Below are positions 875 to 44,442 of a DNA stretch of 64,000 nt, one piece after another (position 1 is the first letter of the stretch; the number at the start of each line of letters is the position of its first letter). The stretch lies in assembly GCA_019058315.1 (NCBI GenBank), contig JAHPZH010000009.1, positions 32,001 through 96,000 of the forward strand, read 5' to 3'. Position numbers and translations under genes: made by a program. Under the pieces are notes generated by a model, which made no database searches, was not told the DNA's origin, and saw only the letters and a program-made list of their open reading frames with translations. The stretch is from Candidatus Helarchaeota archaeon. Lineage in GTDB: Archaea; Asgardarchaeota; Lokiarchaeia; Helarchaeales; RDOG01.

Positions 875-1987
875 TTGGAAGAGAACAAAAAATCAAGTTC
901 ATTTCGAAAAAATTTGTTATATTTAATATTTACTCTAATTACAATTGTTGTAATCTTATTCTATATTTTTATTAATATTCCCGCTGACACTTTTTTTCAA
1001 ATAATAACTAATTTTATTTGGAGCTGGTTTATTTTAACTTTCATAGATCTATTGTTTTGTATGTTACTTAGGGGATTACGATTGAGATTTCTTTTAAAAG
1101 AATTTAATGAAGGAGTAACTTATAGAGATTGTTTATTTTCGATATTTGGAGGTTATTATATTAATACTATATCTCCAGCAAGATTAGGGGACGTTTATAA
1201 CGCATATGTCTTGAACAAATCTAGTAATGTAAATTTAGGACATTCAGTTGGTTCTATTGTAATATCACGAATTATGGATATAGTTATATTAGTAATTTTT
1301 GCTCTTACTACTATATTTTATCATATTTTTTTCGGAAAAAGTATATTTGTAGGATTCACCCCGAGTGTCCTTCAATATCTACAACCGGTATTCATTATAA
1401 TTATTGTTATAACTGTAAGTTTCGTTCTAATTTTAATTTTTAAGAATAAATTTTTAATTTTGTTAAATAAGATATTAGGTCGTTTGCCAATAATTAAGAA
1501 AATGGAAAGAAAAGAAAGTATTGAAAAATTATCTAAAGATAGTATTAATACTATCGAATATTTCTTGAAAAATAAGAAGCTATTTTTGATTATAATTTTA
1601 TTTACATTTGGGATTGTATTTTTAGATACTTTAACAATTTTTTGCATGACACGGGCAATAAATTTTCCATTTACTTCTCTTCGGTTCTTTGCTAATGACT
1701 TATATCACAATATGCCCTTATATTTAACAATAATGACCGGAAGTATGGCTTTATTATCATTATCTTTCGTTGTCTTACCTGGTGGAATTGGACAATATGA
1801 GCTAGTAGGGGCTATTATATTAGAAAATATTGTTGGTTTAGCATTAATTCCTTGGGGTTTTACTGGTTTTACCTTTATGTTTATTGAACATCTTTTAGTT
1901 AGAGCAGCTTTTTTTTCAGTAGGAGGAAATATTTCCCTCTATAAGTTGGGTAAACCAGGAAAAGTATTAGAAGAACTTAACGATTAG
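875..1987 (+). CDS. UPF0104 / LPG-synthase TM-domain (flippase-like) membrane protein
   Basis: Multi-TM protein with LRGLR, NTISPARLGD, SRIMD and PGGIGQYE motifs. Confidence 0.8.
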   Translation: MEENKKSSSFRKNLLYLIFTLITIVVILFYIFINIPADTFFQIITNFIWSWFILTFIDLLFCMLLRGLRLRFLLKEFNEGVTYRDCLFSIFGGYYINTISPARLGDVYNAYVLNKSSNVNLGHSVGSIVISRIMDIVILVIFALTTIFYHIFFGKSIFVGFTPSVLQYLQPVFIIIIVITVSFVLILIFKNKFLILLNKILGRLPIIKKMERKESIEKLSKDSINTIEYFLKNKKLFLIIILFTFGIVFLDTLTIFCMTRAINFPFTSLRFFANDLYHNMPLYLTIMTGSMALLSLSFVVLPGGIGQYELVGAIILENIVGLALIPWGFTGFTFMFIEHLLVRAAFFSVGGNISLYKLGKPGKVLEELND

Positions 1988-2687
1988 ATAAAAATTTTTT
2001 TCCTTTAAATAATTCTTTTAAAAAGAATTTTGTAAATCTAATTCCCATTCTCCATGTTTGAGCTTTTCTAGCCCCTCCAATTCTCTCTAATTCTAATGTA
2101 GGAATTTCTTTTATTCTATATTTTAGTTTAGCAGCTCTAATTGTCATTTGAAATTCTATTTCATGTTCAGTTGCGTCTTGATTTAATTTTATTAATTTCT
2201 CTTTCTTGATTCCTCTAAATCCATTAATAGCATCATGTATTTTTATTTGCCAAAATAATCGTACAAGTGTCGTAAAAAATAAATTTCCCATCTTACGAAC
2301 TCTAACAGGGTCATCACTATCATCACTTTGAGCTGTTTTCATAAAACGAGAAGCAATTACGAGATCATAACCTTTTTCTAATTCCTGCTTTATTTTTAAA
2401 ATATCGTACGGATTTTCATTTCCATCAGGGCTGAAGAAAATTATGTTTTCTTGAGTAGCATGTTTAGCACCTATCAAAAAAGCTACACCCCTACCTCGAT
2501 GTTTTTGAATCAAGAGTCTTAACTTCTTATTAATTTTCATTTTCTCCCTATAAAACTTAATTGTACCATCAGTTGACCCTCCATCAATAGCAAGAACTTC
2601 ATCTACAATATCAAATGGAATTTTTTCATACATTTTAGTTATAGTTTCTATTTCGTTCAATGTTAGAATGACTAGCGTAGTTCCGAT
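1977..2687 (-). CDS. GT2 glycosyltransferase, polyprenol-P-glycosyltransferase (DPM1-like), no TM anchor
   Basis: Motifs IDGGSTDGT, FSPDG, ASRF, DAINGFRG and ERIGG. The first beta-strand (TTLVILTLNE) lies upstream of the track's TTG at 2660, so I place the start at ATC 2687, 9 nt after GGAG. Confidence 0.85.
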   Translation of the reverse strand: MGTTLVILTLNEIETITKMYEKIPFDIVDEVLAIDGGSTDGTIKFYREKMKINKKLRLLIQKHRGRGVAFLIGAKHATQENIIFFSPDGNENPYDILKIKQELEKGYDLVIASRFMKTAQSDDSDDPVRVRKMGNLFFTTLVRLFWQIKIHDAINGFRGIKKEKLIKLNQDATEHEIEFQMTIRAAKLKYRIKEIPTLELERIGGARKAQTWRMGIRFTKFFLKELFKGKKFLSNR

Positions 2688-29488: not shown

Positions 29489-30211
29489 TTGGGTCTATCT
29501 GGAGTAAAAAAATTGCGCCCCAAAATCTCAGTAATAATTCCCGCTTATAATGAAGCGAAGACAATAAAAGATCTAAAACTTGAAGTAATTCGAGCTTTAA
29601 TCTCGAAATCTACTACAAATTCAGCGGAAATTATTATTGTAGACGATGGATCCACCGATGATACTTATCGTTTTGCTAATGGAAATGGAACTATCGTTCT
29701 TCGTAATGAAAAAAATTCTGGTTATGGGGCTGCAGTTAGAAAAGGATTGGATCATGCAACTGGAGATATTCTTATAACTATTGATGGGGATTATCAAAAT
29801 GATCCAACGGAAATTCCCGAATTAATTAATGCATTACTTAAAAGTAAGGCAGATTTTGTTAATGGATCGAAATTCTTGGGGAAATTTAAACCAAAGGTGC
29901 CTTTTATAAAAAAAATTGGAGAAAAAATTGTTAGTTTTCTAATTAAGTTAATTTATCGTAAAAAAATAACTTATTCACAAAGTGGGTTTAAAGCATTTAA
30001 AAAATCATTGTATGAAAGAGTTAAGCCTATTAAAGAACAAAGATTTGGCTTTAATTCGGAACTTTTAGTAAAAACATTAAAAAAAGGTTACAATATTAAA
30101 GAAATTCCTGTAACTATCAAACCAAGACCCCATGGAAAGAGCCGAATTCAATTTTTTAAGGATGGTGTAAGAATACTTTATGTATTTATTAGAACCATTT
30201 TAATAGGTTAA
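29489..30211 (+). CDS. GT2 glycosyltransferase, DPM1-like, no TM anchor
   Basis: Motifs IIPAYNE, VDDGSTD, IDGDYQ, SQSGFKA and RPHGKS. The true start is probably the TTG of LRPKIS. Confidence 0.9.
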   Translation: MGLSGVKKLRPKISVIIPAYNEAKTIKDLKLEVIRALISKSTTNSAEIIIVDDGSTDDTYRFANGNGTIVLRNEKNSGYGAAVRKGLDHATGDILITIDGDYQNDPTEIPELINALLKSKADFVNGSKFLGKFKPKVPFIKKIGEKIVSFLIKLIYRKKITYSQSGFKAFKKSLYERVKPIKEQRFGFNSELLVKTLKKGYNIKEIPVTIKPRPHGKSRIQFFKDGVRILYVFIRTILIG

Positions 30212-30852: not shown

Positions 30853-31941
30853 CTAATCAGATAAATTTTCTTTTTTAATTATATCAACAATTTTTTCACT
30901 GGCATAACCATCACCATAAGGTGATGGAAAATTGAGTTGATTTTTAAAATCATAATTATCAATTGAATCTAACACAAATTTAGGATCGGTTCCAACTACT
31001 TTTGCGAAACCTGATTTCACTGCTTCTGGTCTATCAGTCGATTTTCTTATAACAAATGCAAATTTTTGGAATATTGGTGCTGTTGCTTCTTCTTGAATCC
31101 CCCCAGAATCGGTTATTATGAATTTGCAGCTTTTCATAAGGCATAATATATCCAAATAACTTACAGGCGGTAATAGCTGAATTTTATCAGATTTAGAAAT
31201 TTTATCATATAATCCAAATTCTTTCATCCTATTCAAACTTCTAGGATGAATTGGATAAATTACAGGAAGGGGAACATTAAGTAGGATTTCAACAATGTTT
31301 TTTAATGTTTCTTTATTATCCACATTTTCTGCTCGATGAGCAGTCACTAATATAAAATCTTTAAAATTTATCTCTTTAAGAATGGATGATTTTTTTATAG
31401 CTATTTCAAAATGTTTTAAGCAAGCATCTATCACTGTATTACCTGTAACATAGATTTTTCCCCAGACATTTTCACCTTCTAAAAGGGTTCTTGACAATTC
31501 TGTTGGAGCAAATAAATAATCCGACATATGATCTAGAATTCGCCTATTATATTCCTCAGCCATGCGCATATCATATGAACGAAGACCGGCTTCTAAATGT
31601 CCTACTTTAATATGAATTTTTGCCGCAGTTAGCCCTCCTGCTAGAGCTGAATTTGTATCTCCTTGAACAATTACAAATGACGGGTTTTCCTTTAATAATA
31701 CTTTTTCAATATCTATCAGCATTTTTCCTGTTTGTTCTCCATGTGACCCTGATCCCACGTTTAAATGATATTCTGGTTCTCTTAATTCCAAATCATTGAA
31801 AAATTGGTCACATAACGAAGCATCATAATGCTGGTCAGTAAATAAAACCCTGTAATCTATTTTTCTTTTTTCACATACCTTTATAACTGGAGATACTTTG
31901 ATAATTTCTGGACGTGTACCAAGTACAAAGAAAATTGTCAT
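30853..31941 (-). CDS. wecB: UDP-N-acetylglucosamine 2-epimerase (non-hydrolysing)
   Basis: Motifs GTRPEIIK, QGDT, HLEAGLRS, HRAEN, DSGGIQEEA and YGDG. Confidence 0.95.
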   Translation of the reverse strand: MTIFFVLGTRPEIIKVSPVIKVCEKRKIDYRVLFTDQHYDASLCDQFFNDLELREPEYHLNVGSGSHGEQTGKMLIDIEKVLLKENPSFVIVQGDTNSALAGGLTAAKIHIKVGHLEAGLRSYDMRMAEEYNRRILDHMSDYLFAPTELSRTLLEGENVWGKIYVTGNTVIDACLKHFEIAIKKSSILKEINFKDFILVTAHRAENVDNKETLKNIVEILLNVPLPVIYPIHPRSLNRMKEFGLYDKISKSDKIQLLPPVSYLDILCLMKSCKFIITDSGGIQEEATAPIFQKFAFVIRKSTDRPEAVKSGFAKVVGTDPKFVLDSIDNYDFKNQLNFPSPYGDGYASEKIVDIIKKENLSD

Positions 31942-31958: not shown

Positions 31959-33173
31959 TTATCTTAATTTATATTTTAATTCCTTAATGTGTCTAGTTAT
32001 ATACATATCGCAAACCAAGCCAAATAATAGAATTTGGATTCCCATTATTATTAATAAGGCGGACAAAACCAAATTTCCTGTTAATAATTGTCCAAACATA
32101 ATTGAATTATAAACAACAACTGCACCCACAAGTATTCCACCTGCAACTAATACAGTACCAAGAGCACCAAATAGTGATAATGGATGATAATCACGATATG
32201 TTTTAAGTCCAATAATGGAAATTCGTAAAGCGTAATCAGCAGGATCTGAAATTAATTTTGATTTTCCATGGGGTCTTTTCAAGAATTTAACTGGTACTTC
32301 GGTAATGCGAAATCCTTCCTCAGCAGCTCTGATTATCAATTCCTGTGTATAAGTATAGTCTGAAGTTATTGGTACTTCCTCTAAAACTTCTCTTCGAATT
32401 GCTCTAAATCCCGTCTGCGAGTCAGTCAAATGTAAGCCCGCAAAACGATTAACACACCATGTAAAGACTTTATTTCCCAATTTTTTAATAGGCCCCATTT
32501 TTTCGATAGTTCCCATGAAGCGAGACCCTAAAACTAGATCCGCTTTATTGTTTTCTGCTATTTCTAATAATTTTGGGATTTCATCAGCATCATATTGCCC
32601 ATCCGCATCAATAGTAAGTACTATATCCGCTTCTAATCTTAAAGCCTCTTTGAAGCCATCTTTAATCGAAATACCTAATCCTTTATTCATATCATGATTA
32701 AAAACATAAGCCCCAGCTTCTTTAGCTCGTTTCCCTGTTTCATCTTTTGAGCCATCATTAATAACAATAATATAATCCAAATATTTTAGAGCTTTAGTTA
32801 CTACATCTGCTATGGAAGCTTCTTCATTATATGCTGGCATTACTCCAATTCTCTTCTCTACTGGTTTTAAAATTGGCATACTACTTGGTAGAATCGGGAC
32901 TTTACCTGTGTGATGAAATAATTTTATAAAGTAATGGATAAAAAGAAATATTAAACCACCCAAAAAACTCCACCATGCGAAAGCTACGAAATAAGAACCT
33001 GCCCCACCAAATATGTTTGTTGTCAGAGGCCAAATCCAAATTTCTATAAGCATTCTTGGATTCGAAATAAAAACATTCCAAATTGTTATAGCTATAAATA
33101 CAGCTATTATTCCAACTATAATTAAGAAAGATAGAGCCAATAGACTCCATCCAATTGAACGTAATCTCGGCAT
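31959..33173 (-). CDS. GT2 polyprenol-P-glycosyltransferase with N- and C-terminal TM helices
   Basis: Motifs MPAYNE, INDGSKD, IDADGQ, DSQTGFRA and PLSLFG, with two extra N-terminal TMs. Confidence 0.9.
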   Translation of the reverse strand: MPRLRSIGWSLLALSFLIIVGIIAVFIAITIWNVFISNPRMLIEIWIWPLTTNIFGGAGSYFVAFAWWSFLGGLIFLFIHYFIKLFHHTGKVPILPSSMPILKPVEKRIGVMPAYNEEASIADVVTKALKYLDYIIVINDGSKDETGKRAKEAGAYVFNHDMNKGLGISIKDGFKEALRLEADIVLTIDADGQYDADEIPKLLEIAENNKADLVLGSRFMGTIEKMGPIKKLGNKVFTWCVNRFAGLHLTDSQTGFRAIRREVLEEVPITSDYTYTQELIIRAAEEGFRITEVPVKFLKRPHGKSKLISDPADYALRISIIGLKTYRDYHPLSLFGALGTVLVAGGILVGAVVVYNSIMFGQLLTGNLVLSALLIIMGIQILLFGLVCDMYITRHIKELKYKLR

Positions 33174-34505: not shown

Positions 34506-35808
34506 ACTTTGAAATTCTCTTTAATTCATAGAGTTTATGAGCATTAATACAAGCTTTTCGAAGAGTATCTATCTGATATTCGATATTATTTTGCTCAAAT
34601 TTTAGAGTATAGATATGCCTCAAAGATTTGATTGCATTTTTTATATAAAATGCTTGCTTTTGGGTATTTTTAATCGAAAAAAGTGTCGAAAGAGCCGCAG
34701 TATATATTTTTATTATTGGAGATTGTTTTGAAAATATATTATTTAAAGTAAAAAATCTTTTATGATTCCTCATATATGTAAAATTTTCATAAATTTGTAA
34801 TAATAACGAACCAAAATAAACTAGAAATTTATTATTTAAAATGAAATCTTTAAGATAATATTCTATATAAGGATAAAAATAGTATAATTCTAAAAATTTT
34901 GGAATTTTTTTAATAAATTTGAATGGATCTCCGGCATTTTTCCTCGTAATATACTCAAAATAGTACATAAGAACTTCTATAAGATCATCAGAAGTTGAAT
35001 GCCATAATTTAATAGGATCTAAACCAGATTCATTATATTCTGGTCTTAACTTTAACTTGGTGAATTTTTTTATTTTTTCATCTAAATTTGGAAATCTTTC
35101 TGATAAAAATGGTAATTTTTTATAACATTTTTGAAAATTTATTGCTCTTTCCTTATAAGTTGCCTCATAACATCTCATTAATATAGTTAAAGCAGTAGCA
35201 ATTTCTAAATATACTTTTCCACATTCATAGATACAGGATTCATTAAGGAATGAGTCTTTAAGGAATAATGAAGGATTTTTTGGATAATATTCAAGCAATC
35301 CAATAATTTTGTTTAAAAGAACTCTCAAACCACTTGAATAAGTAATATCTTCTTTTCGGATTTGAATTAGTTGACGAACATCTGATCCATATATAAGTCT
35401 ACTACCTTCTTTTAATTCAAAATTACTAATATCTGGTGGTAACCTTGTTAAGCTCTTCTTTTTAACTATTTTAATATTGATATGAAAATGACCTGGTGAA
35501 GCCTTATAATACCAATCACTGGGAATTTTCAAGACATTATGAATATTGGATATTAATTTTATGTAGTCATTTTCAGAAATCTTATGATTTGAGACAACTA
35601 TTAAATCGTAATCTTTTAATGGAATTAATTCGCGATTATTAATAATTTTTATTGAACCCTCTCCACGCCCAAATCCCCCAACAAGGATTATAGAACCGAC
35701 ATTTTTAATTTTTTTAAGAATTTCCTGACAAATTATTCTCATATGTGAGGAAATAAAAGATTCAATCCAATCTTCGCTATAATCAGTAAATGTGTTCAAA
35801 TTTTTCAC
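34495..35808 (-). CDS. Pol-beta-superfamily nucleotidyltransferase-like protein
   Basis: LVGGFGRGEGS...KDYDLIVV signature followed by a helical C-terminal domain. Confidence 0.65.
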   Translation of the reverse strand: MKNLNTFTDYSEDWIESFISSHMRIICQEILKKIKNVGSIILVGGFGRGEGSIKIINNRELIPLKDYDLIVVSNHKISENDYIKLISNIHNVLKIPSDWYYKASPGHFHINIKIVKKKSLTRLPPDISNFELKEGSRLIYGSDVRQLIQIRKEDITYSSGLRVLLNKIIGLLEYYPKNPSLFLKDSFLNESCIYECGKVYLEIATALTILMRCYEATYKERAINFQKCYKKLPFLSERFPNLDEKIKKFTKLKLRPEYNESGLDPIKLWHSTSDDLIEVLMYYFEYITRKNAGDPFKFIKKIPKFLELYYFYPYIEYYLKDFILNNKFLVYFGSLLLQIYENFTYMRNHKRFFTLNNIFSKQSPIIKIYTAALSTLFSIKNTQKQAFYIKNAIKSLRHIYTLKFEQNNIEYQIDTLRKACINAHKLYELKRISKSTF

Positions 35809-37049
35809 GAATTTTCAATTTTTAATATAGATTTTCCTAAAATACCTCTTTTAGGAGGCAAATTTAAAATCTCTAGAATTGTTGGGAGAATATCAATAAA
35901 TTCCATTTTCTTTTTGATTTTTTGAGGAGAAATATTTAATCCATTTAAAATAAACAGGGCATTTAAATTCGAATGAGTAGGAAAATAACCATGCATACCT
36001 TTGACTATTTCTGTTCCTTGATAAAAATTTGGTAAAATAAGAGTTCCTGGGTTAACAGCAAATATTAAGTCACCATAAATATTAGTATTAGGAATATGAA
36101 GCTGTTTTTTTTCTTTAAGAGTAAGAAAATGTCCCTCTGGAAATTTATCTAATTGATTTTTTATTTGTTTGTGTATTGAGATATTTTTAGTATAAAAACG
36201 TGCTAAAGTGGAATCTAAAAAAATTTGATAATCTTTACCTATTTTTAAATTCAATGGTTTTAAACAAGCAAAAATATTCAATATTTTTTTAATTTTAACC
36301 ATTCCGTGGTCCGAAAGAATTAAAAATGACGTGTCATCACTTCTATTTTCAAAAGTTTCAAAAATTTCTTTAATATTGTAATCAGTTTTTTTAAGTGTTT
36401 CATTAAATTTTGATGAATTGGGACCATTCTTATGACTTATGGTGTCTAAGTCAAAAAATCTAAAGAGATAAAAATCAAAACTATTCTTTTTTGAAATATT
36501 TGTCCGAAACATTTTCATTGTATCTTTATCATTATGTACAAATGGAAAATTAATAAATAAGGATTTTTTTTGGTTATTACGTAAGATATCAAAGAGTGTT
36601 TGAATTCTTCCTATTGAATTTTTTTCTACAATGCTCTTAACCATTGGAATATTAAAATTTTTTAGTAGATTCCATGGAATCAGAGTAGTTCTTGGAAATT
36701 GTCTGAAATTTTTAAGAGTCTGTGTTGTATAACAAATGGGAGCAGTTAATATTTTCTTGAAATACAAGTTAGGAATACGTTTTACAAAAAAATTTAAAAG
36801 AAGAAGAAATGGATTATAAGTCCATCGAAATGGTGAATGAGAAGGATCGTAATAATAATCTAACCAAATTTTATGTTGATCAGGGTATAAACCAGAAAAT
36901 ATTGTAGGTTCTATCCCTCGAAATGCTAATAAGGGCTCTATTTTTGCAAAAATGCCATCTTCAGCAAGACGATACAAGAATGGAGAATACTTTTTCGAAA
37001 TATATGCGTAACCTAATGCATCTATCATCAACATAATTAATTTTTTCAT
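35805..37049 (-). CDS. Alkaline-phosphatase-superfamily (nucleotide pyrophosphatase/phosphodiesterase-like) protein
   Basis: Metal-ligand motifs IDALG, DTISHKNGP, SDHGM and GMHGY, plus DILPT. Confidence 0.85.
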   Translation of the reverse strand: MKKLIMLMIDALGYAYISKKYSPFLYRLAEDGIFAKIEPLLAFRGIEPTIFSGLYPDQHKIWLDYYYDPSHSPFRWTYNPFLLLLNFFVKRIPNLYFKKILTAPICYTTQTLKNFRQFPRTTLIPWNLLKNFNIPMVKSIVEKNSIGRIQTLFDILRNNQKKSLFINFPFVHNDKDTMKMFRTNISKKNSFDFYLFRFFDLDTISHKNGPNSSKFNETLKKTDYNIKEIFETFENRSDDTSFLILSDHGMVKIKKILNIFACLKPLNLKIGKDYQIFLDSTLARFYTKNISIHKQIKNQLDKFPEGHFLTLKEKKQLHIPNTNIYGDLIFAVNPGTLILPNFYQGTEIVKGMHGYFPTHSNLNALFILNGLNISPQKIKKKMEFIDILPTILEILNLPPKRGILGKSILKIENS

Positions 37050-38068: not shown

Positions 38069-39616
38069 TTGAAAATCAAAGAAAATATAGAGAAAAATGG
38101 AAATAGATCCATTTCTCAAAAACTTGCTAAAGAAAGCATACACTCGGTCAGCTGGTTATTAGTTTTCCGGATATCAGCCATTATTTCCTCTATAATAATA
38201 GCAAATTTACTTCTTGAACAATATTATGGAATCTATTCAGTATTAAGCTCATGGGGACTGGTTTTAAATTATGTTTGTAGTATGGGAATTCCAGTTGCCG
38301 CAGCTAAGATAATTTCAGAAAATAGAATTAAAAATCCTGAAAAAAATTATACACTTTTTGCGAATATGATTTTAATTAATCTAATTAATTTTATTTTTGT
38401 TTTTGTTTTTTCTATTCTAACATTTAATTTCTTTATTTCTAATGTTTACAACGTAAAAATTTATGATATTCCGTTATTTGAAACCTTATTATTGTTAACA
38501 GTTTTAAAAGCATCGATTTATTCCTTCTTTTCTTTGGAACAAGGTATAGCTACTGGATATCGTGAATTTAAAGCTATTGCACTTATTTTTATAATTTGTT
38601 ATTTCGCTAAAATTCCAATTCTCTATGTGATGGTTAATAATTACAATATAAATGGAGTGTTTCTGACTGAAATAATTACGGAGTTAATAGTATTTTTTTG
38701 CTTTTACGTATTTCTATCAAATTATTTTAAAAGAAATAATATTAAAATCATGTTTAAAATTAAAAAAGAGCAAATAAAGAAAATATATCGCTTAGGAATT
38801 CCTTCATTTCTATCAAATTTAATATTTATTTCTGTAAATTGGTTTGGATTAACGATTTTGGCGATAAATCTTTCTTTTGTTGATGTTGGGTATTTTCAGA
38901 CTTCTCTAAATATTGCAAATTTGATTTTTCTCATCCCTTACGGAATAATAGCTCCATTTTTACCTGAAATTACAGAAAAATATCAACAAAATAAAGAAGA
39001 TTTCCATAAAACAATCTCAAAAGTATTAAAATTAATTATTTTGATTATATTTCCGTTAATAATTTTTGTAGGCCTTTTTTCACCATTTCTAATTAAAATT
39101 TTTTATCCAAAATATTACAGCTTGTTGACTTTTTATTCAACTTACATTTTACTCCCATATGTATTCATTAGTGGATTTACGATGGTTTTTTTTTATTCAT
39201 TTATTTCCATGGAAAAAAGTCGAGTTTTAATCGCTTTAGAAGGGTGTAAAGCAATAAGTTTTTTTATTTTTACCATAATTTTAGTACCTGTATACGGGAT
39301 TTTAGGTTTAGCTTATGTATATTTTCTATCTTTTTTGATTTATTCGATTATTTATCATTTAGTAATTATCCACTATAAATTCAAGTTTTCAGTGTTACCT
39401 CTTATCATGGTGAGTATATTATACGGAGGTTTTCTTTTATATTCCTCTATTTTATCTGAAATTAATATATACTCTCTTATTTGGATAATTAGTGCTGTAA
39501 CACTTTGTATAATTGTCTCAACAACTTCATTTATCCAATTATGGAAAGATCAAGATTGCAAAAATTTTATCTTAAGTTTAATCAGTATTTTTAAAAGGAG
39601 CTCAAATCCTGACTAA
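38069..39616 (+). CDS. Oligosaccharide flippase (Wzx/MOP superfamily)
   Basis: About 14 TM segments with YGIYS, VGYF, PFLPEITE and LVPVYGILGLA motifs. Confidence 0.85.
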   Translation: MKIKENIEKNGNRSISQKLAKESIHSVSWLLVFRISAIISSIIIANLLLEQYYGIYSVLSSWGLVLNYVCSMGIPVAAAKIISENRIKNPEKNYTLFANMILINLINFIFVFVFSILTFNFFISNVYNVKIYDIPLFETLLLLTVLKASIYSFFSLEQGIATGYREFKAIALIFIICYFAKIPILYVMVNNYNINGVFLTEIITELIVFFCFYVFLSNYFKRNNIKIMFKIKKEQIKKIYRLGIPSFLSNLIFISVNWFGLTILAINLSFVDVGYFQTSLNIANLIFLIPYGIIAPFLPEITEKYQQNKEDFHKTISKVLKLIILIIFPLIIFVGLFSPFLIKIFYPKYYSLLTFYSTYILLPYVFISGFTMVFFYSFISMEKSRVLIALEGCKAISFFIFTIILVPVYGILGLAYVYFLSFLIYSIIYHLVIIHYKFKFSVLPLIMVSILYGGFLLYSSILSEINIYSLIWIISAVTLCIIVSTTSFIQLWKDQDCKNFILSLISIFKRSSNPD

Positions 39617-39618
39617 AA

Positions 39619-40785
39619 ATGTCAAAATTAAAAATCCTCTTGTTAACAATTTATAATTATCCCCATCCTGGAGGGATTTCCTCCCATATTAGTAATCTAA
39701 GAGATGGTTTAACAGAATTAAAGACAAAAGTAGAAATTTTTTCAACAAGTTCCTTATCAAAACTTTTTAATTCTTTTATTCGAATCATTTATTTTCTCAG
39801 AAAATTAAATCTGGCAATATTTTATTTCTTTTATTTAAATATTTTGAAGATTTACTTTCAGATTCGCTTATTTGTGAATTATTTGAAGAATAAATGGAAT
39901 GTAATAAATGCACAAGACCCTATTGCTTTAAATTGTACTAAATTAATTAGAATTTTCTTTAAACCAACACTAATTTTAACTGTTCATGGTTTCCTTGCTG
40001 CGGAAACATTAGTAGATTTGGATACTAAAAATAGTTTTATTAGTAATTTACTTATAAAAGAAGAAAAAAAATCATATTTTGATGCTGATAGAATAATTAC
40101 AATAGAAAATAGTAGAAAAGAGCATATTCTTAAATATATTAATAATCCTAAAAAAATTTTAATCCGAAATAACTTCGTAAATACTTCAATTTTCAGAAAA
40201 TTTCGAAATAATTATTTTAAGAGTAAATTTTCTTTACCAAAAGAAGCATATATTATTCTTTTTCCCAAAAGAATAGTGAAAGCTTCAGGAGTGAAATATT
40301 TTATTGAGGCAGCTAAAGAATTACTCAAAATAGAAAAGCATTATTATTTTATTATCTTAGGAAAAGGATATCTATTAAAAAAAATTAAAAAATTGACTAA
40401 GAATCAAAAAAATATCTTATATCATGACCCCATTCCCAATTCATTCATGCCATATCTCATAAATTCATCGAAAATTACAGTTATTCCATCTATTTCTCTT
40501 GGTTCTACAAAAGAAGGAAGCAGTATGGCAATAATTGAATCAATGGCTTGTGGTATTCCAGTTATTGCAACTAGAGTTGGAGGAAATCCTGCACTAATTA
40601 AGTCAGGAAAAACAGGTTTATTGATCCCTGAAAAGAATAGTAATGCAATAAGTGAAACAATAATTCGATTATATGAAGATAAAGAACTATGGAATAAAAT
40701 CTCTATTAATTCCCGTGAATTTATAATTAAAAATTACTCTCATATTAAAGCTGCAAAATTTTTTCTAAAAAATTATTTTCTATGA
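39619..40785 (+). CDS. GT4 glycosyltransferase
   Basis: Motifs YPHPGG, TVHG and EGSSMAIIESMACGIPV. Confidence 0.9.
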   Translation: MSKLKILLLTIYNYPHPGGISSHISNLRDGLTELKTKVEIFSTSSLSKLFNSFIRIIYFLRKLNLAIFYFFYLNILKIYFQIRLFVNYLKNKWNVINAQDPIALNCTKLIRIFFKPTLILTVHGFLAAETLVDLDTKNSFISNLLIKEEKKSYFDADRIITIENSRKEHILKYINNPKKILIRNNFVNTSIFRKFRNNYFKSKFSLPKEAYIILFPKRIVKASGVKYFIEAAKELLKIEKHYYFIILGKGYLLKKIKKLTKNQKNILYHDPIPNSFMPYLINSSKITVIPSISLGSTKEGSSMAIIESMACGIPVIATRVGGNPALIKSGKTGLLIPEKNSNAISETIIRLYEDKELWNKISINSREFIIKNYSHIKAAKFFLKNYFL

Positions 40786-41909
40786 TAAAACATTTTTATT
40801 GTTGACACATAAATTTTATGAATTTTCTTGAAAATCTTTTTTGAGTCAAACTTATTTTCAATTATTTTTCTGCTATTTTTACCCATTTCTCTTCTTAATT
40901 CTGGTCTGGAAATTAATGTATTAATGTTATTTTTAAGAGCTAAATAATCATTTTTTGGAATTAAAAAACCATTAAATTCGTGTTTAATCAATTCCTGGAC
41001 TCCTCCTACAGCAGTTGCTATAATTGGAGCTTCACACGCCATCGCTTCTAATATAACTGTTGGTTGTCCTTCATATAAACTTGGTAAGACGAATAAATCA
41101 CAAGCAGAATAGTATATTGGTAGTTTATCATTAGAAATTTTACCTAAAAAAAACACTTTATCTTTTATCCTATGTTTTTTTGCAAATTTGATTAATTTCC
41201 TTTTTTGTGGGCCATCACCAATTATTTGTAGACAAATATTTGAATATTTTTTCGCTAATTCCTGTATTGCTAATATGAGATTACCTATTCCTTTTGTAGA
41301 AACAAGGCGACTTACGATTAGAACAATTATTTTATTATTTAATCCATTTACTTTCTTGAAATCAATAATTCTTTGCTCATTAGATCTCCTAAATTTTTTC
41401 GAATCTATGAAATTTGGAATAAGATCAATTTTTTTTATCGTATATTGTTTTGCTCTAATCTGGAGGAATTTATTAATGGCTATAATCCTATCAGTGTTTT
41501 TTAAAATGAATTTTACTAAAAAAGGGATTTTTCTCGCAAAATTATAAATTCCCCCACCATGTAATGTAATAATAACTGGAATTTTTAAAATTTTTTTAAT
41601 TAAAATGGCAGCTAAACCTTCTGAAATAACTCCATTTGCATGTATTATATGAGTTTTTAACTTTTTATGATTTTTGATAAATGATATAAAATACATTAAT
41701 GTTTTAAATAAAAATCGAATAATTGGGAAATTTAAGGACTTTAAGGAAAAAATTTTAACATTTTTCTTTGAAATTTTCAATGAGCCGAAAGAAAAGATCG
41801 TTGTTTTATATTTTAATTTTATTGAATTTTTTAAAAGTAAATAACAATAAATCTCTTGTCCCCCAATTTTGTCTGGAAATATTCCACGTGTAAATATCGC
41901 CAAATTCAT
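40773..41909 (-). CDS. GT4 glycosyltransferase
   Basis: Motifs FPDKIGGQE, TLHG, SRLVSTKG and EGQPTVILEAMA. Confidence 0.9.
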   Translation of the reverse strand: MNLAIFTRGIFPDKIGGQEIYCYLLLKNSIKLKYKTTIFSFGSLKISKKNVKIFSLKSLNFPIIRFLFKTLMYFISFIKNHKKLKTHIIHANGVISEGLAAILIKKILKIPVIITLHGGGIYNFARKIPFLVKFILKNTDRIIAINKFLQIRAKQYTIKKIDLIPNFIDSKKFRRSNEQRIIDFKKVNGLNNKIIVLIVSRLVSTKGIGNLILAIQELAKKYSNICLQIIGDGPQKRKLIKFAKKHRIKDKVFFLGKISNDKLPIYYSACDLFVLPSLYEGQPTVILEAMACEAPIIATAVGGVQELIKHEFNGFLIPKNDYLALKNNINTLISRPELRREMGKNSRKIIENKFDSKKIFKKIHKIYVSTIKMFYHRK

Positions 41910-42340: not shown

Positions 42341-42667
42341 TTGGATTTGAAAAAATTGCAAAGAGACAAGCTTTATGGATTGATAATCTTCTTGGTAGCG
42401 CTAATTCTACTGGTCTATTTAACAATGGCAAACGTTATGATCATTTTTGCTGGTGGTAATAAAGATTATTACGCAATAGATTGGCCAATCTTCTTTGGAC
42501 CATGGGTATACGTTGTTGCACCGCTTATGCTCGCAGAAATCTTAATCTTTGGTATAGCTGCGTGGATAGGGTGGACAATGATGACAACTCCGCCTCCAGT
42601 TCCTCTTGAGGAATTAGAAGGTCTCGGTTTAGACGAAGATATAGAAGAAAAAGACGAATCTGCATAA
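42341..42667 (+). CDS. Small 2-TM protein, DPM2-like, with TPPP motif and acidic tail
   Basis: DKLYGLIIFLVALILLVYLT...FFGPWVYVVAPL...WIGWTMMTTPPP. The probable start is TTG 42356. Confidence 0.7.
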   Translation: MDLKKLQRDKLYGLIIFLVALILLVYLTMANVMIIFAGGNKDYYAIDWPIFFGPWVYVVAPLMLAEILIFGIAAWIGWTMMTTPPPVPLEELEGLGLDEDIEEKDESA

Positions 42668-42791
42668 ATAATTTTATAATATTTTTTTATTTTCTTATTT
42701 TTATTAAAAAATGTGAATAAAGAATAAAATCTTTTTAAAATAAAAGACTATATTTTAGATTTTTTATTTTTAGATTTTCAAATTACCCACT

Positions 42792-43073
42792 TTATTCCAA
42801 TTCTTGTAATTTTTGCTCTTTAAGTGGAATGGGCTTTGGAGGTTTCATTTTATTCCATCCTATCCATATTAAAACTCCTAAAACTAAAAATTCTACAAGC
42901 ATAATCGGTACTACCACATAGACCCAGGGACTGAAGAAAAGTTCTCCCAAATATGGATATGCACTTGGGATTCCATTTGATAAAAGGATGTTAGTATTTG
43001 CAACAGTCATATAAATCAATATTGGGAATATAAAAAATAATATTAAGCCCCCATAAAGTTTTTCTTTTGCCAA
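42792..43073 (-). CDS. Small 2-TM protein, paralog of 42341-42667
   Basis: Shares KLYG, YxTxAN, FFxPWVYVVxP, LxE and WIGWxxMxPP with its convergent neighbour. Confidence 0.7.
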   Translation of the reverse strand: MAKEKLYGGLILFFIFPILIYMTVANTNILLSNGIPSAYPYLGELFFSPWVYVVVPIMLVEFLVLGVLIWIGWNKMKPPKPIPLKEQKLQELE

Positions 43074-43326: not shown

Positions 43327-44442
43327 TTGGTTAATGAAATCATATTGGACGACGAAAATCGAATAAAATCTATTGATTCAGATGATATGTATAAATTTTT
43401 AATGAACATGCCTGAAAGTTGCGCTGAAATGTTAGATGTTGCCAAAAAATTTCAACTTTCTCATGGAATAGAAGAGTTTAGGAATATTTTGATTTGTGGA
43501 ATGGGCGGAAGCGGGATAGGAGGTAACTTAGTCCGGGATCTATTATATGATAAAATACCAATTCCAATTATTATAAATCGAAGTTATAACATTCCAGCAT
43601 TTGTAAATAAAAAAACCTTTATGATAGTGATAAGTTATTCAGGAAATACAGAAGAGACACTAAGTGCATTTGCAGAAGGAATTAAACGTGAATGTAAAAT
43701 TGTAGGATTAAGTTCAAATGGTAAACTAATTGAATATTGTAAGAAACTTGGGATTGAATATATCAAAGTTCCTACTGAAATTCAACCAAGAGCAGCAATT
43801 CCTTATCTATTTATTGCAATATTAATGATATTACAAAAATCAAAAATTATATCAGATTTTTCACAAGATTTAGAAGAAACTATAACCATTTTAAAAAATT
43901 TAAGAAATGAATTGTTTATTAAAAGTCCTTTAAATAATAATCTCGCAAAACAAATTGCAATTGGGATTATGGGTTCCATTCCTATGATATATGCGACTTC
44001 AGGTTATGGAAGTCTTGCGCGTAGAATGAAGTGTCAAATTAACGAGAATAGCAAGAATCCCGCTCATTGGGACGAATTTCCAGAATTAAACCATAATGAA
44101 GTAGTAGGTTGGGAGGTAACATCGAATATTACCCAAATTTCATGTGCTATTTTATTAAGAACACAAGATGAAAATGAAGTAATCAATAATAGGATAGAAA
44201 TAACTAAAAATATTATTTTAAAAGACAAAGTTAAAGAAGTTTTTGAAATTTGGAGTCGTGGAAAATCTAAATTAGCGAAAATGTTCTCACTTTTATTCAT
44301 AGGGGATTTCGTAAGTTATTATTTGGCAATTTTAAAAGGAGTAAATCCAACACCCGTTAAAAGTATTAGTGAATTAAAGAAAAAATTAAAAGAAAGATTA
44401 AATTTTTTGCATTTAATCGAAAATAAACTGTTTTCAACTTAA
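43327..44442 (+). CDS. Bifunctional phosphoglucose/phosphomannose isomerase
   Basis: Motifs GMGGSG, SYSGNTEET, QPRAA, QINENSK and PELNHNE. Confidence 0.92.
   Translation: MVNEIILDDENRIKSIDSDDMYKFLMNMPESCAEMLDVAKKFQLSHGIEEFRNILICGMGGSGIGGNLVRDLLYDKIPIPIIINRSYNIPAFVNKKTFMIVISYSGNTEETLSAFAEGIKRECKIVGLSSNGKLIEYCKKLGIEYIKVPTEIQPRAAIPYLFIAILMILQKSKIISDFSQDLEETITILKNLRNELFIKSPLNNNLAKQIAIGIMGSIPMIYATSGYGSLARRMKCQINENSKNPAHWDEFPELNHNEVVGWEVTSNITQISCAILLRTQDENEVINNRIEITKNIILKDKVKEVFEIWSRGKSKLAKMFSLLFIGDFVSYYLAILKGVNPTPVKSISELKKKLKERLNFLHLIENKLFST

Follow-up and report, generated by a model that had tools for sequence, protein, structure and literature searches.

Introduction

The synthesis of dolichyl-phosphate mannose (Dol-P-Man) and of glycosylphosphatidylinositol (GPI) anchors is initiated by enzymes whose small subunits DPM2 and PIG-P are of medical relevance. 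DPM2 is the regulatory subunit of the eukaryotic Dol-P-Man synthase and is also present in the GPI-N-acetylglucosamine (GlcNAc) transferase complex, and DPM3 tethers DPM1 to the membrane in eukaryotes. Soluble lipid-sugar transferases with dedicated membrane anchors are also known in other systems, with Alg14 serving Alg13 and mycobacterial Ppm2 serving Ppm1. Here we describe two adjacent open reading frames (ORFs), ORF A and ORF B, each coding for a small protein with two predicted membrane helices, in a 64,000-nucleotide stretch of the genome of a Candidatus Helarchaeota archaeon (contig JAHPZH010000009.1, positions 32,001 to 96,000; hereafter ‘the window’, in whose numbering coordinates are given unless another contig is named). 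Based on profile comparisons carried through their relatives, both are very probably archaeal members of the DPM2/PIG-P family.

The archaeal ancestry of this family is not new, as it was already stated in a 2025 Nature paper on dated gene duplications, where the duplication listed as ‘DPM2 and PIGP’ predates the last eukaryotic common ancestor and the family is given an archaeal origin (PMC12872463). In an AlphaFold3 model, PIGP, PIGY and DPM2 are V-shaped two-helix domains that lie beneath the peripheral enzyme PIGA, and PIG-P serves an enzyme of glycosyltransferase family 4 (GT4) (PMC12182360). An older paper reported PIG-A but no accessory subunits in archaea (PMC2446393), and a survey of conserved archaeal membrane proteins mentions neither DPM2 nor PIG-P (PMC5898192). 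Our literature search found no functional study of archaeal DPM2/PIG-P-like proteins.

Results

A convergent pair of paralogous genes

ORF A (42341..42667, + strand), which codes for 108 residues from the first TTG, is the canonical copy of an archaeal DPM2/PIG-P-like hairpin, and ORF B (42792..43073, − strand; 93 residues) is its divergent paralog. The initial annotation of the window had described two paralogous two-helix proteins encoded tail to tail, and both ORFs are indeed found in this arrangement. A gap-free alignment of their products spans 86 residues, 38 of which are identical (44%; E 4e-26). A search of the same genome with the family profile returned two copies in total, ORF A at E 7.8e-31 and ORF B at E 1.4e-21. 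Neither ORF was matched in an NCBIfam scan.

The same convergent pair with identical neighbours is present on two related Helarchaeota contigs (L095 and L096). The gene order on the Helarchaeota contigs is a polysaccharide flippase, two GT4 genes, ORF A, ORF B in the opposite orientation, a phosphoglucose/phosphomannose isomerase (PGI/PMI)-type gene and the genes of the ribosomal proteins S19, L22 and S3. Codon comparisons with the orthologs on these two contigs gave pN/pS ratios of 0.13-0.17 for ORF A and 0.14-0.44 for ORF B, the orthologs of the latter sharing 65% identity. Both ORFs are under purifying selection and are therefore real genes, with ORF B evolving faster than ORF A. Because the orthologs and relatives of ORF A begin with MQRDK, its true start is probably the TTG at 42356, which would yield a protein of 103 residues. 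The 124-bp spacer between the convergent stop codons (42668..42791) is AT-rich, with T runs on both strands, and likely represents a shared termination zone of the two genes.

Matches to the DPM2 and PIG-P profiles

The Pfam gathering cut-offs are 27.3 bits for DPM2 (PF07297) and 39.3 bits for PIG-P (PF08510). When the 50 members of the family alignment were scanned one by one, 34 matched DPM2 (best 1.7e-8) and 38 matched PIG-P (best 2.3e-10). The members P0050, P0052, P0058 and P0069 lie above the DPM2 gathering score, with 30-35 bits over profile positions 2-71 of 75. Among these, the Asgard proteins P0050, P0052 and P0058 have DPM2 scores of 32.6, 33.7 and 35.0 bits; their E values with ORF A are 3.7e-14, 8e-12 and 2.5e-9, respectively, in a library of 1.8 billion proteins. 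P0050 and P0058 are also marginally over the PIG-P cut-off (39.8 and 40.8 bits). The DPM2-family membership that we propose for ORF A and ORF B is transitive and applies at the level of the family.

The specificity of the DPM2 model was assessed by running it in all six frames, at E <= 0.001, over 151 Asgard genomes (~450 Mb) and 14 control genomes. It yielded 40 matches in 39 of the Asgard genomes, 37 of them at loci found independently with the family profile and the other three in two-helix proteins of 82-84 residues. Twenty-four genomes are over the cut-off, with a best score of 54.3 bits, and none of the 14 control genomes was matched. Such specificity argues against mere hydrophobic likeness. 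A six-frame survey with the PIG-P model matched the same gene in many genomes, none of them over the cut-off (best 38.6 bits vs 39.3), and in four genomes of the window's own class this model matched the family locus at 2e-6 to 1.5e-4.

The likeness to DPM2 put forward in the initial annotation thus stands for the family, where it goes beyond hydrophobicity (34 of 50 members and 24 of 151 genomes, as above), but not for ORF A and ORF B taken individually, which give no match. On these profile scores the label ‘DPM2-like’ is also too narrow, because PIG-P and DPM2 are matched about equally well by the family.

The three short proteins come from one Asgard genus (L097:195-443, L098:159-407 on the − strand and L099:195-449, in genomes G139, G142 and G130). 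They have two helices joined by a short loop and a basic C-terminus, without the TTPPP motif described below (MNDKFVG...VWIGxNFLKNRAPKED). They are above the Pfam DPM2 cut-off, yet hardly detected by the family profile, and of all archaeal matches they seem nearest to eukaryotic DPM2 in size and layout.

Two other types of match were set aside. In sister genomes, the PIG-P model also matches CPBP/CAAX-protease-like membrane proteins encoded by ORFs of ~260 residues, at E 1e-5 to 1e-3; a 272-residue match in the genome of the window (L085:928-1746, contig C5; E 0.07) looks like a CPBP-type protease and was considered a false positive. Such false positives recur and should be kept in mind when the PIG-P model is applied to archaea. 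The Holin-X model (PF07332) gave weak matches in 41 of the 50 family members (best 3e-5), never above the cut-off. A Holin-X identity was rejected, with scores of 18-19.5 bits against a cut-off of 28.4 for a chromosomal core gene located among housekeeping genes.

Distribution in archaea

More than 100 relatives of ORF A at 50% clustering were found in the protein library. With the family profile, we detected the hairpin gene in 138 of the 151 sampled Asgard genomes, including 73 of the 77 high-quality ones, nearly always as a single copy. It is also present in 234 of 251 sampled Thermoproteota genomes, frequently in 2-4 copies, which confirms an earlier remark that relatives with a WIGWTMxTTPPP motif occur in other archaea and that the family is not restricted to Asgard lineages. 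Titles of public records place family members in Bathyarchaeia, all major Asgard groups, Methanomethylicota and Nitrososphaerota. In databases, they are labelled ‘hypothetical’ or ‘transcriptional regulator’.

Predicted fold and conserved tail motif

The AlphaFold2 model of ORF A, computed from the 50-sequence family alignment, is a two-helix hairpin with helices at residues 3-37 and 54-82 and a mean predicted local distance difference test (pLDDT) score of 87, a confident prediction. A Foldseek search of this hairpin against solved structures returned nothing at E <= 0.001, as expected for a two-helix hairpin. In a profile search of the sequences of solved structures, no DPM2 or PIG-P chain was found, and the DHHC20 palmitoyltransferase was matched weakly over its helices 1-2 (E 0.09).

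Family members share an N-terminal M-x-(K/R)-D-(K/Q)-x-x-G motif, a first helix, a loop of highly variable length and a second helix starting near a conserved proline, followed by WIGWTMxTTPPPxP(L/I)EE and an acidic low-complexity tail. The WIGWTMxTTPPPxP(L/I)EE motif, immediately C-terminal to helix 2, is nearly invariant across the family. ORF A conforms to this layout, with (R/K)DKxYG at the N-terminus, helix 1, a variable loop, helix 2, WIGWTMMTTPPPVPLEELE and an acidic tail. ORF B retains the hairpin, and its tail motif has decayed to WIGWNKMKPPKPIPLKE; this decay is common to ORF B and its orthologs, and the canonical motif is kept in ORF A.

Some longer family members (P0298-P0300, P0120 and P0158; 150-295 residues in all) carry C-terminal helix-hairpin-helix/DUF4332 domains beyond the tail motif. 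These fusions suggest an orientation with the C-terminus in the cytoplasm. These forms may also explain database labels such as ‘DNA-binding transcriptional regulator’.

Origin of the second copy

All other sampled genomes of the window's class lack a second copy of the hairpin gene, and judging from this distribution the duplication that gave rise to ORF B is lineage-specific. The initial annotation had suggested that the duplication might parallel the split between DPM2 and DPM3. This idea is unsupported, as ORF B is a recent, faster-evolving and lineage-specific paralog with a decayed tail motif. In Hermod/Promethearchaeota loci a HypC gene lies convergent with the hairpin gene, but it is not a paralog.

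Gene neighbourhood

Downstream of the pair, a gene at 43327..44442 (+ strand) codes for a SIS-type isomerase of the PGI/PMI type (Pfam bact-PGI_C, 8.7e-51), in agreement with an earlier assignment of this neighbour; it is a conserved neighbour, being the same in L095 and L096. The predicted reaction of the enzyme is the conversion of fructose-6-phosphate to mannose-6-phosphate or glucose-6-phosphate. The divergent upstream neighbour of ORF A (40773..41909, − strand) codes for a GT4 glycosyltransferase (Glycos_transf_1, 2.3e-48) and is also kept in L095 and L096. It closes a long cluster of glycan-synthesis genes, and its link to ORF A is one of position. A glycan-synthesis region of ~40 kb upstream of the pair (1-42000) contains many GT4 and glycosyltransferase family 2 (GT2) genes, together with genes for a Wzx-type flippase (38069-39616), a UDP-GlcNAc 2-epimerase (30853-31941) and a phosphodiesterase/sulfatase-like enzyme (35805-37049).

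Of 73 loci from other genomes, 36, spread over several lineages, have a gene for a phosphomannomutase, a nucleoside diphosphate (NDP)-sugar pyrophosphorylase, a mannose-6-phosphate isomerase or a triose-phosphate isomerase within four genes of the hairpin gene; these 36 loci represent at least five different arrangements, and the related genomes among them are not independent. Thorarchaeota-type loci have the phosphomannomutase, and Odin-type loci a cupin mannose-6-phosphate isomerase with a PfkB kinase. A GMPP-like nucleotidyltransferase was found in Hermod/Promethearchaeota and, as an independent case, in Bathyarchaeia, and the triose-phosphate isomerase in Methanomethylicota/Nitrososphaerota loci. 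In Asgard genomes other than that of the window, SIS isomerase and phosphohexomutase genes are co-directional with the single hairpin gene, as in the mutase-SIS-hairpin cluster of one genome (G006; locus L101). In the genome with the most DPM2-like copy, a sugar-nucleotide epimerase gene lies 70 bp downstream of the hairpin gene.

DUF1616 may be a second recurrent partner. On a Bathyarchaeia contig (L057:5347-6285, + strand), a DUF1616 membrane protein and the hairpin form a single open frame of 312 residues, and in Hermod/Promethearchaeota loci a DUF1616 gene is found two genes upstream of the hairpin gene (L007:4110-4772, + strand). Some Bathyarchaeia encode two soluble proteins of ~550 residues downstream of the hairpin gene; these lack membrane segments and any Pfam match, and were dropped as a lead.

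Candidate catalytic partners

Five GT2 proteins encoded in the genome of the window are of the Dol-P-Man synthase/GtrB/ArnC kind, and four have no membrane anchor. The best anchor-less GT2 of the DPM1/Ppm1 type is located on another contig (C3:748948-749703; 251 residues); it matches the Pyrococcus furiosus Dol-P-Man synthase (5mlz) at 2.8e-38, and its relatives at 80-92% identity are named polyprenol monophosphomannose synthase by NCBI. A complex prediction with this protein and ORF A gave a score of 0.00, which speaks neither for nor against binding. In its locus (L093:3001-3756; L093 corresponds to C3:745948-752703), the gene is followed by a second GT2 gene. A 593-residue membrane protein with many helices and no Pfam match is encoded convergent to the GT2 genes, and two small membrane proteins of 87 and 104 residues, without family match, are encoded ~1 kb upstream.

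Two further candidate partners are encoded in the window, both without any hydrophobic segment. The first (29489..30211, + strand; 240 residues), of the polyprenyl-phosphate sugar transferase kind, matches the P. furiosus enzyme at 2.6e-20 over the catalytic domain only, and its AglJ-like NCBIfam match is below the cut-off. The second (1977..2660, − strand; 227 residues from the first canonical start) is more distant, with an E value of 5e-5 to the same enzyme. In the latter case, a conserved N-terminal strand, TTLVILTLNE, is found upstream of the first ATG/GTG/TTG and downstream of the preceding stop codon (1977-2750, − strand), and the gene would thus have either a non-canonical start or an N-terminal truncation. 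The initial annotation had placed two DPM1-like GT2 proteins without transmembrane segment in the locus. Their kind and their lack of a hydrophobic segment hold, but at 12 kb and 40 kb from the pair, ‘in the locus’ was generous. The window also codes for a GT2 protein of the Dol-P-Man synthase/GtrB/ArnC kind with four membrane helices (31959-33173).

Discussion

Proposed role

We propose that ORF A and ORF B are small two-helix membrane hairpins with both ends in the cytoplasm, ORF A being the conserved, near-universal copy and ORF B a lineage-specific duplicate that keeps the hairpin and loses the motif. If eukaryotic DPM2 and PIG-P are a guide, the hairpin would be a membrane platform or regulatory subunit, holding or orienting a peripheral glycosyltransferase that faces the cytoplasm and transfers a sugar to a membrane lipid. 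We favour this role among those considered because of the V-shaped domains predicted with AlphaFold3 under PIGA and the activated-sugar gene context. The chances that a DPM2/PIG-P-family hairpin acts here as the platform of a lipid-sugar transferase appear about even to us, and the platform role in itself, which is drawn from analogy, could go either way. The leading candidate partner would be an anchor-less polyprenyl- or dolichyl-phosphate mannose synthase. The choice of a Dol-P-Man synthase as the specific partner is a tentative one, and we consider it distinctly less probable than the platform role.

A number of observations weigh against this proposal. With respect to family assignment, neither ORF A nor ORF B has a Pfam DPM2, PIG-P or DPM3 match even at E 10, the DPM2 and PIG-P models run over the whole genome of the window touch neither of them, and the DPM2 model at 0.001 has no match in any sampled genome of the window's own class. 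The DPM3 model (PF08285) gave weak matches in 10 of the 50 family members, at E >= 0.05 and over the helices only. It found nothing on ORF A or ORF B in their own genome and matched none of the 151 Asgard genomes, in a search run without a positive control genome. A resemblance of the tail to the C-terminus of DPM3, also raised in the initial annotation, is accordingly not supported. The PIGA domain (PF08288) and GPI2/PIG-C (PF06432) have no match in the genome of the window, which is 94% complete.

As for the partner, no GT2 gene adjoins the hairpin gene in any of the 73 loci, and a search for longer forms, which is weak evidence, revealed no fusion to a glycosyltransferase or other enzyme. 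The helix-hairpin-helix fusions have no obvious fit to a glycosylation role. Close orthologs of the anchor-less mannose synthase also have a narrower phyletic range than the hairpin: 21 of the 151 Asgard genomes have no match to the mannose synthase profile at 1e-30, and most of them carry the hairpin. This is the case for all three genomes of family f3, at the same threshold, and for a 3.2-Mb Thorarchaeota chromosome, which has the hairpin and no mannose synthase match at 1e-10. With the hairpin present in nearly every Asgard genome, a phyletic comparison of the two is uninformative in this group.

A more ambitious version of the platform role is that the hairpin was an ancestral membrane receptor for anchor-less lipid-sugar transferases, and that archaea already had a eukaryotic-type Dol-P-Man or Dol-P-hexose synthase made of several subunits. 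The TTPPPxPxEE tail would then dock the catalytic subunit, and ORF A and ORF B would form a heterodimer, as an independent parallel to DPM2 with DPM3 and PIG-P with PIG-Y. Taken as a whole, this scenario is doubtful.

Alternative clients and functions

The hairpin could belong to the same family and serve another client, i.e. a different peripheral enzyme of glycan or lipid-head-group synthesis, such as a GT4 enzyme of the neighbouring type, a chitobiose-forming GlcNAc transferase or a PIG-A-like GlcNAc-inositol-lipid transferase. In a variant, it might tether soluble enzymes of activated-sugar supply to the membrane. The similar profile matches to PIG-P and DPM2 would fit such a client, since PIG-P serves a GT4 enzyme (PMC12182360), as would the GT4 gene upstream of ORF A, conserved in the relatives, and the recurrent neighbours, which are sugar-phosphate and NDP-sugar enzymes rather than GT2 genes. 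The distribution of the family, which exceeds that of close anchor-less mannose synthase orthologs, points in the same direction. However, GT4 adjacency is limited to the Helarchaeota contigs, with different neighbours in other lineages, searches of the genome of the window found neither the PIG-A-specific domain nor PIG-C, and the search for longer forms revealed no enzyme fusion. We regard a different client as unlikely, if less so than an accidental resemblance to DPM2/PIG-P, considered below.

It is similarly improbable that the archaeal homologs of DPM2 and PIG-P are general membrane scaffolds unrelated to glycosylation, whose proline-rich, acidic tail would recruit another cytoplasmic machine, with the glycosylation role restricted to eukaryotes. 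Repeated and variously arranged links to enzymes of mannose and hexose activation in several lineages argue against such a scaffold, and both eukaryotic descendants work with lipid-directed glycosyltransferases (PMC12872463, PMC12182360). A broader housekeeping role is nevertheless consistent with a near-universal, mostly single-copy core gene in two phyla, with its frequent position beside the ribosomal S10 operon in Asgard genomes and with the S-adenosylhomocysteine hydrolase and amidohydrolase genes that are common neighbours in Bathyarchaeia. In addition, no part of DPM2 comes close in conservation to the tail motif, which is missing from those short forms that are most DPM2-like, and some members carry helix-hairpin-helix domains.

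Lastly, a chance similarity of hydrophobic hairpins with some other function, for instance holin-like, is very improbable: the weak matches to an actinobacterial holin family in 41 of 50 members (best 3e-5, below the cut-off), the false PIG-P matches to a ~260-residue CPBP-protease-like protein at 1e-5 to 1e-3 and the lack of a significant Foldseek match among solved structures would be compatible with it, but over ~450 Mb of Asgard DNA the DPM2 matches are exclusive to the hairpin gene, cover the whole profile and reach 54 bits with empty controls, and the gene, unlike that of a holin, is a conserved, chromosomal, single-copy gene under purifying selection with housekeeping neighbours.

Significance

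If the family assignment is correct, the archaeal relatives of DPM2 and PIG-P are a core gene of Asgard archaea and Thermoproteota, with a near-invariant, predicted cytoplasmic motif and recurrent links to mannose activation. The archaeal hairpins would provide a simple, testable system to study hairpin function and to establish whether multi-subunit lipid-sugar transferases predate eukaryotes. An unusually conserved tail motif in a near-universal, unannotated gene makes the function of this subunit family experimentally approachable, and the assignment to the DPM2/PIG-P family corrects the ‘hypothetical’ and ‘transcriptional regulator’ labels of the databases.

Comparison with known systems

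Among the described systems, Alg14/Alg13 and Ppm2/Ppm1 would share with the hairpin the proposed mode of action, in which a membrane protein brings an anchor-less catalytic subunit to its lipid substrate. Nevertheless, their sequences and folds are unrelated to those of the archaeal hairpin, and the parallel is an analogy only. DPM3 is likewise a small membrane protein with two helices, and its C-terminal segment is cytoplasmic, but the family has no significant match to its profile, and ORF B is a recent paralog of ORF A rather than a counterpart of DPM3.

PIG-P/Gpi19, a subunit of the GPI-GlcNAc transferase, also consists of a two-helix hairpin followed by a cytoplasmic extension, and the profile match extends beyond helix 2 into the tail. 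However, the archaeal scores are mostly under the PIG-P cut-off, the model gives false matches elsewhere, and neither PIG-A nor PIG-C was found in the genome of the window. Most archaeal members depart from DPM2 in their long variable loop, invariant TTPPPxPxEE motif and acidic tail; the DPM2 model detects neither ORF A nor ORF B, and no DPM3 was found alongside. DPM2 and the archaeal proteins are small two-helix hairpins nonetheless: the archaeal family is over the DPM2 cut-off in 24 of 151 Asgard genomes across a nearly full profile, and some Asgard forms, at 82-84 residues with a basic C-terminus, have the size and layout of DPM2. The predicted hairpin of ORF A matches the description of the V-shaped PIGP, PIGY and DPM2 domains modelled with PIGA (PMC12182360).

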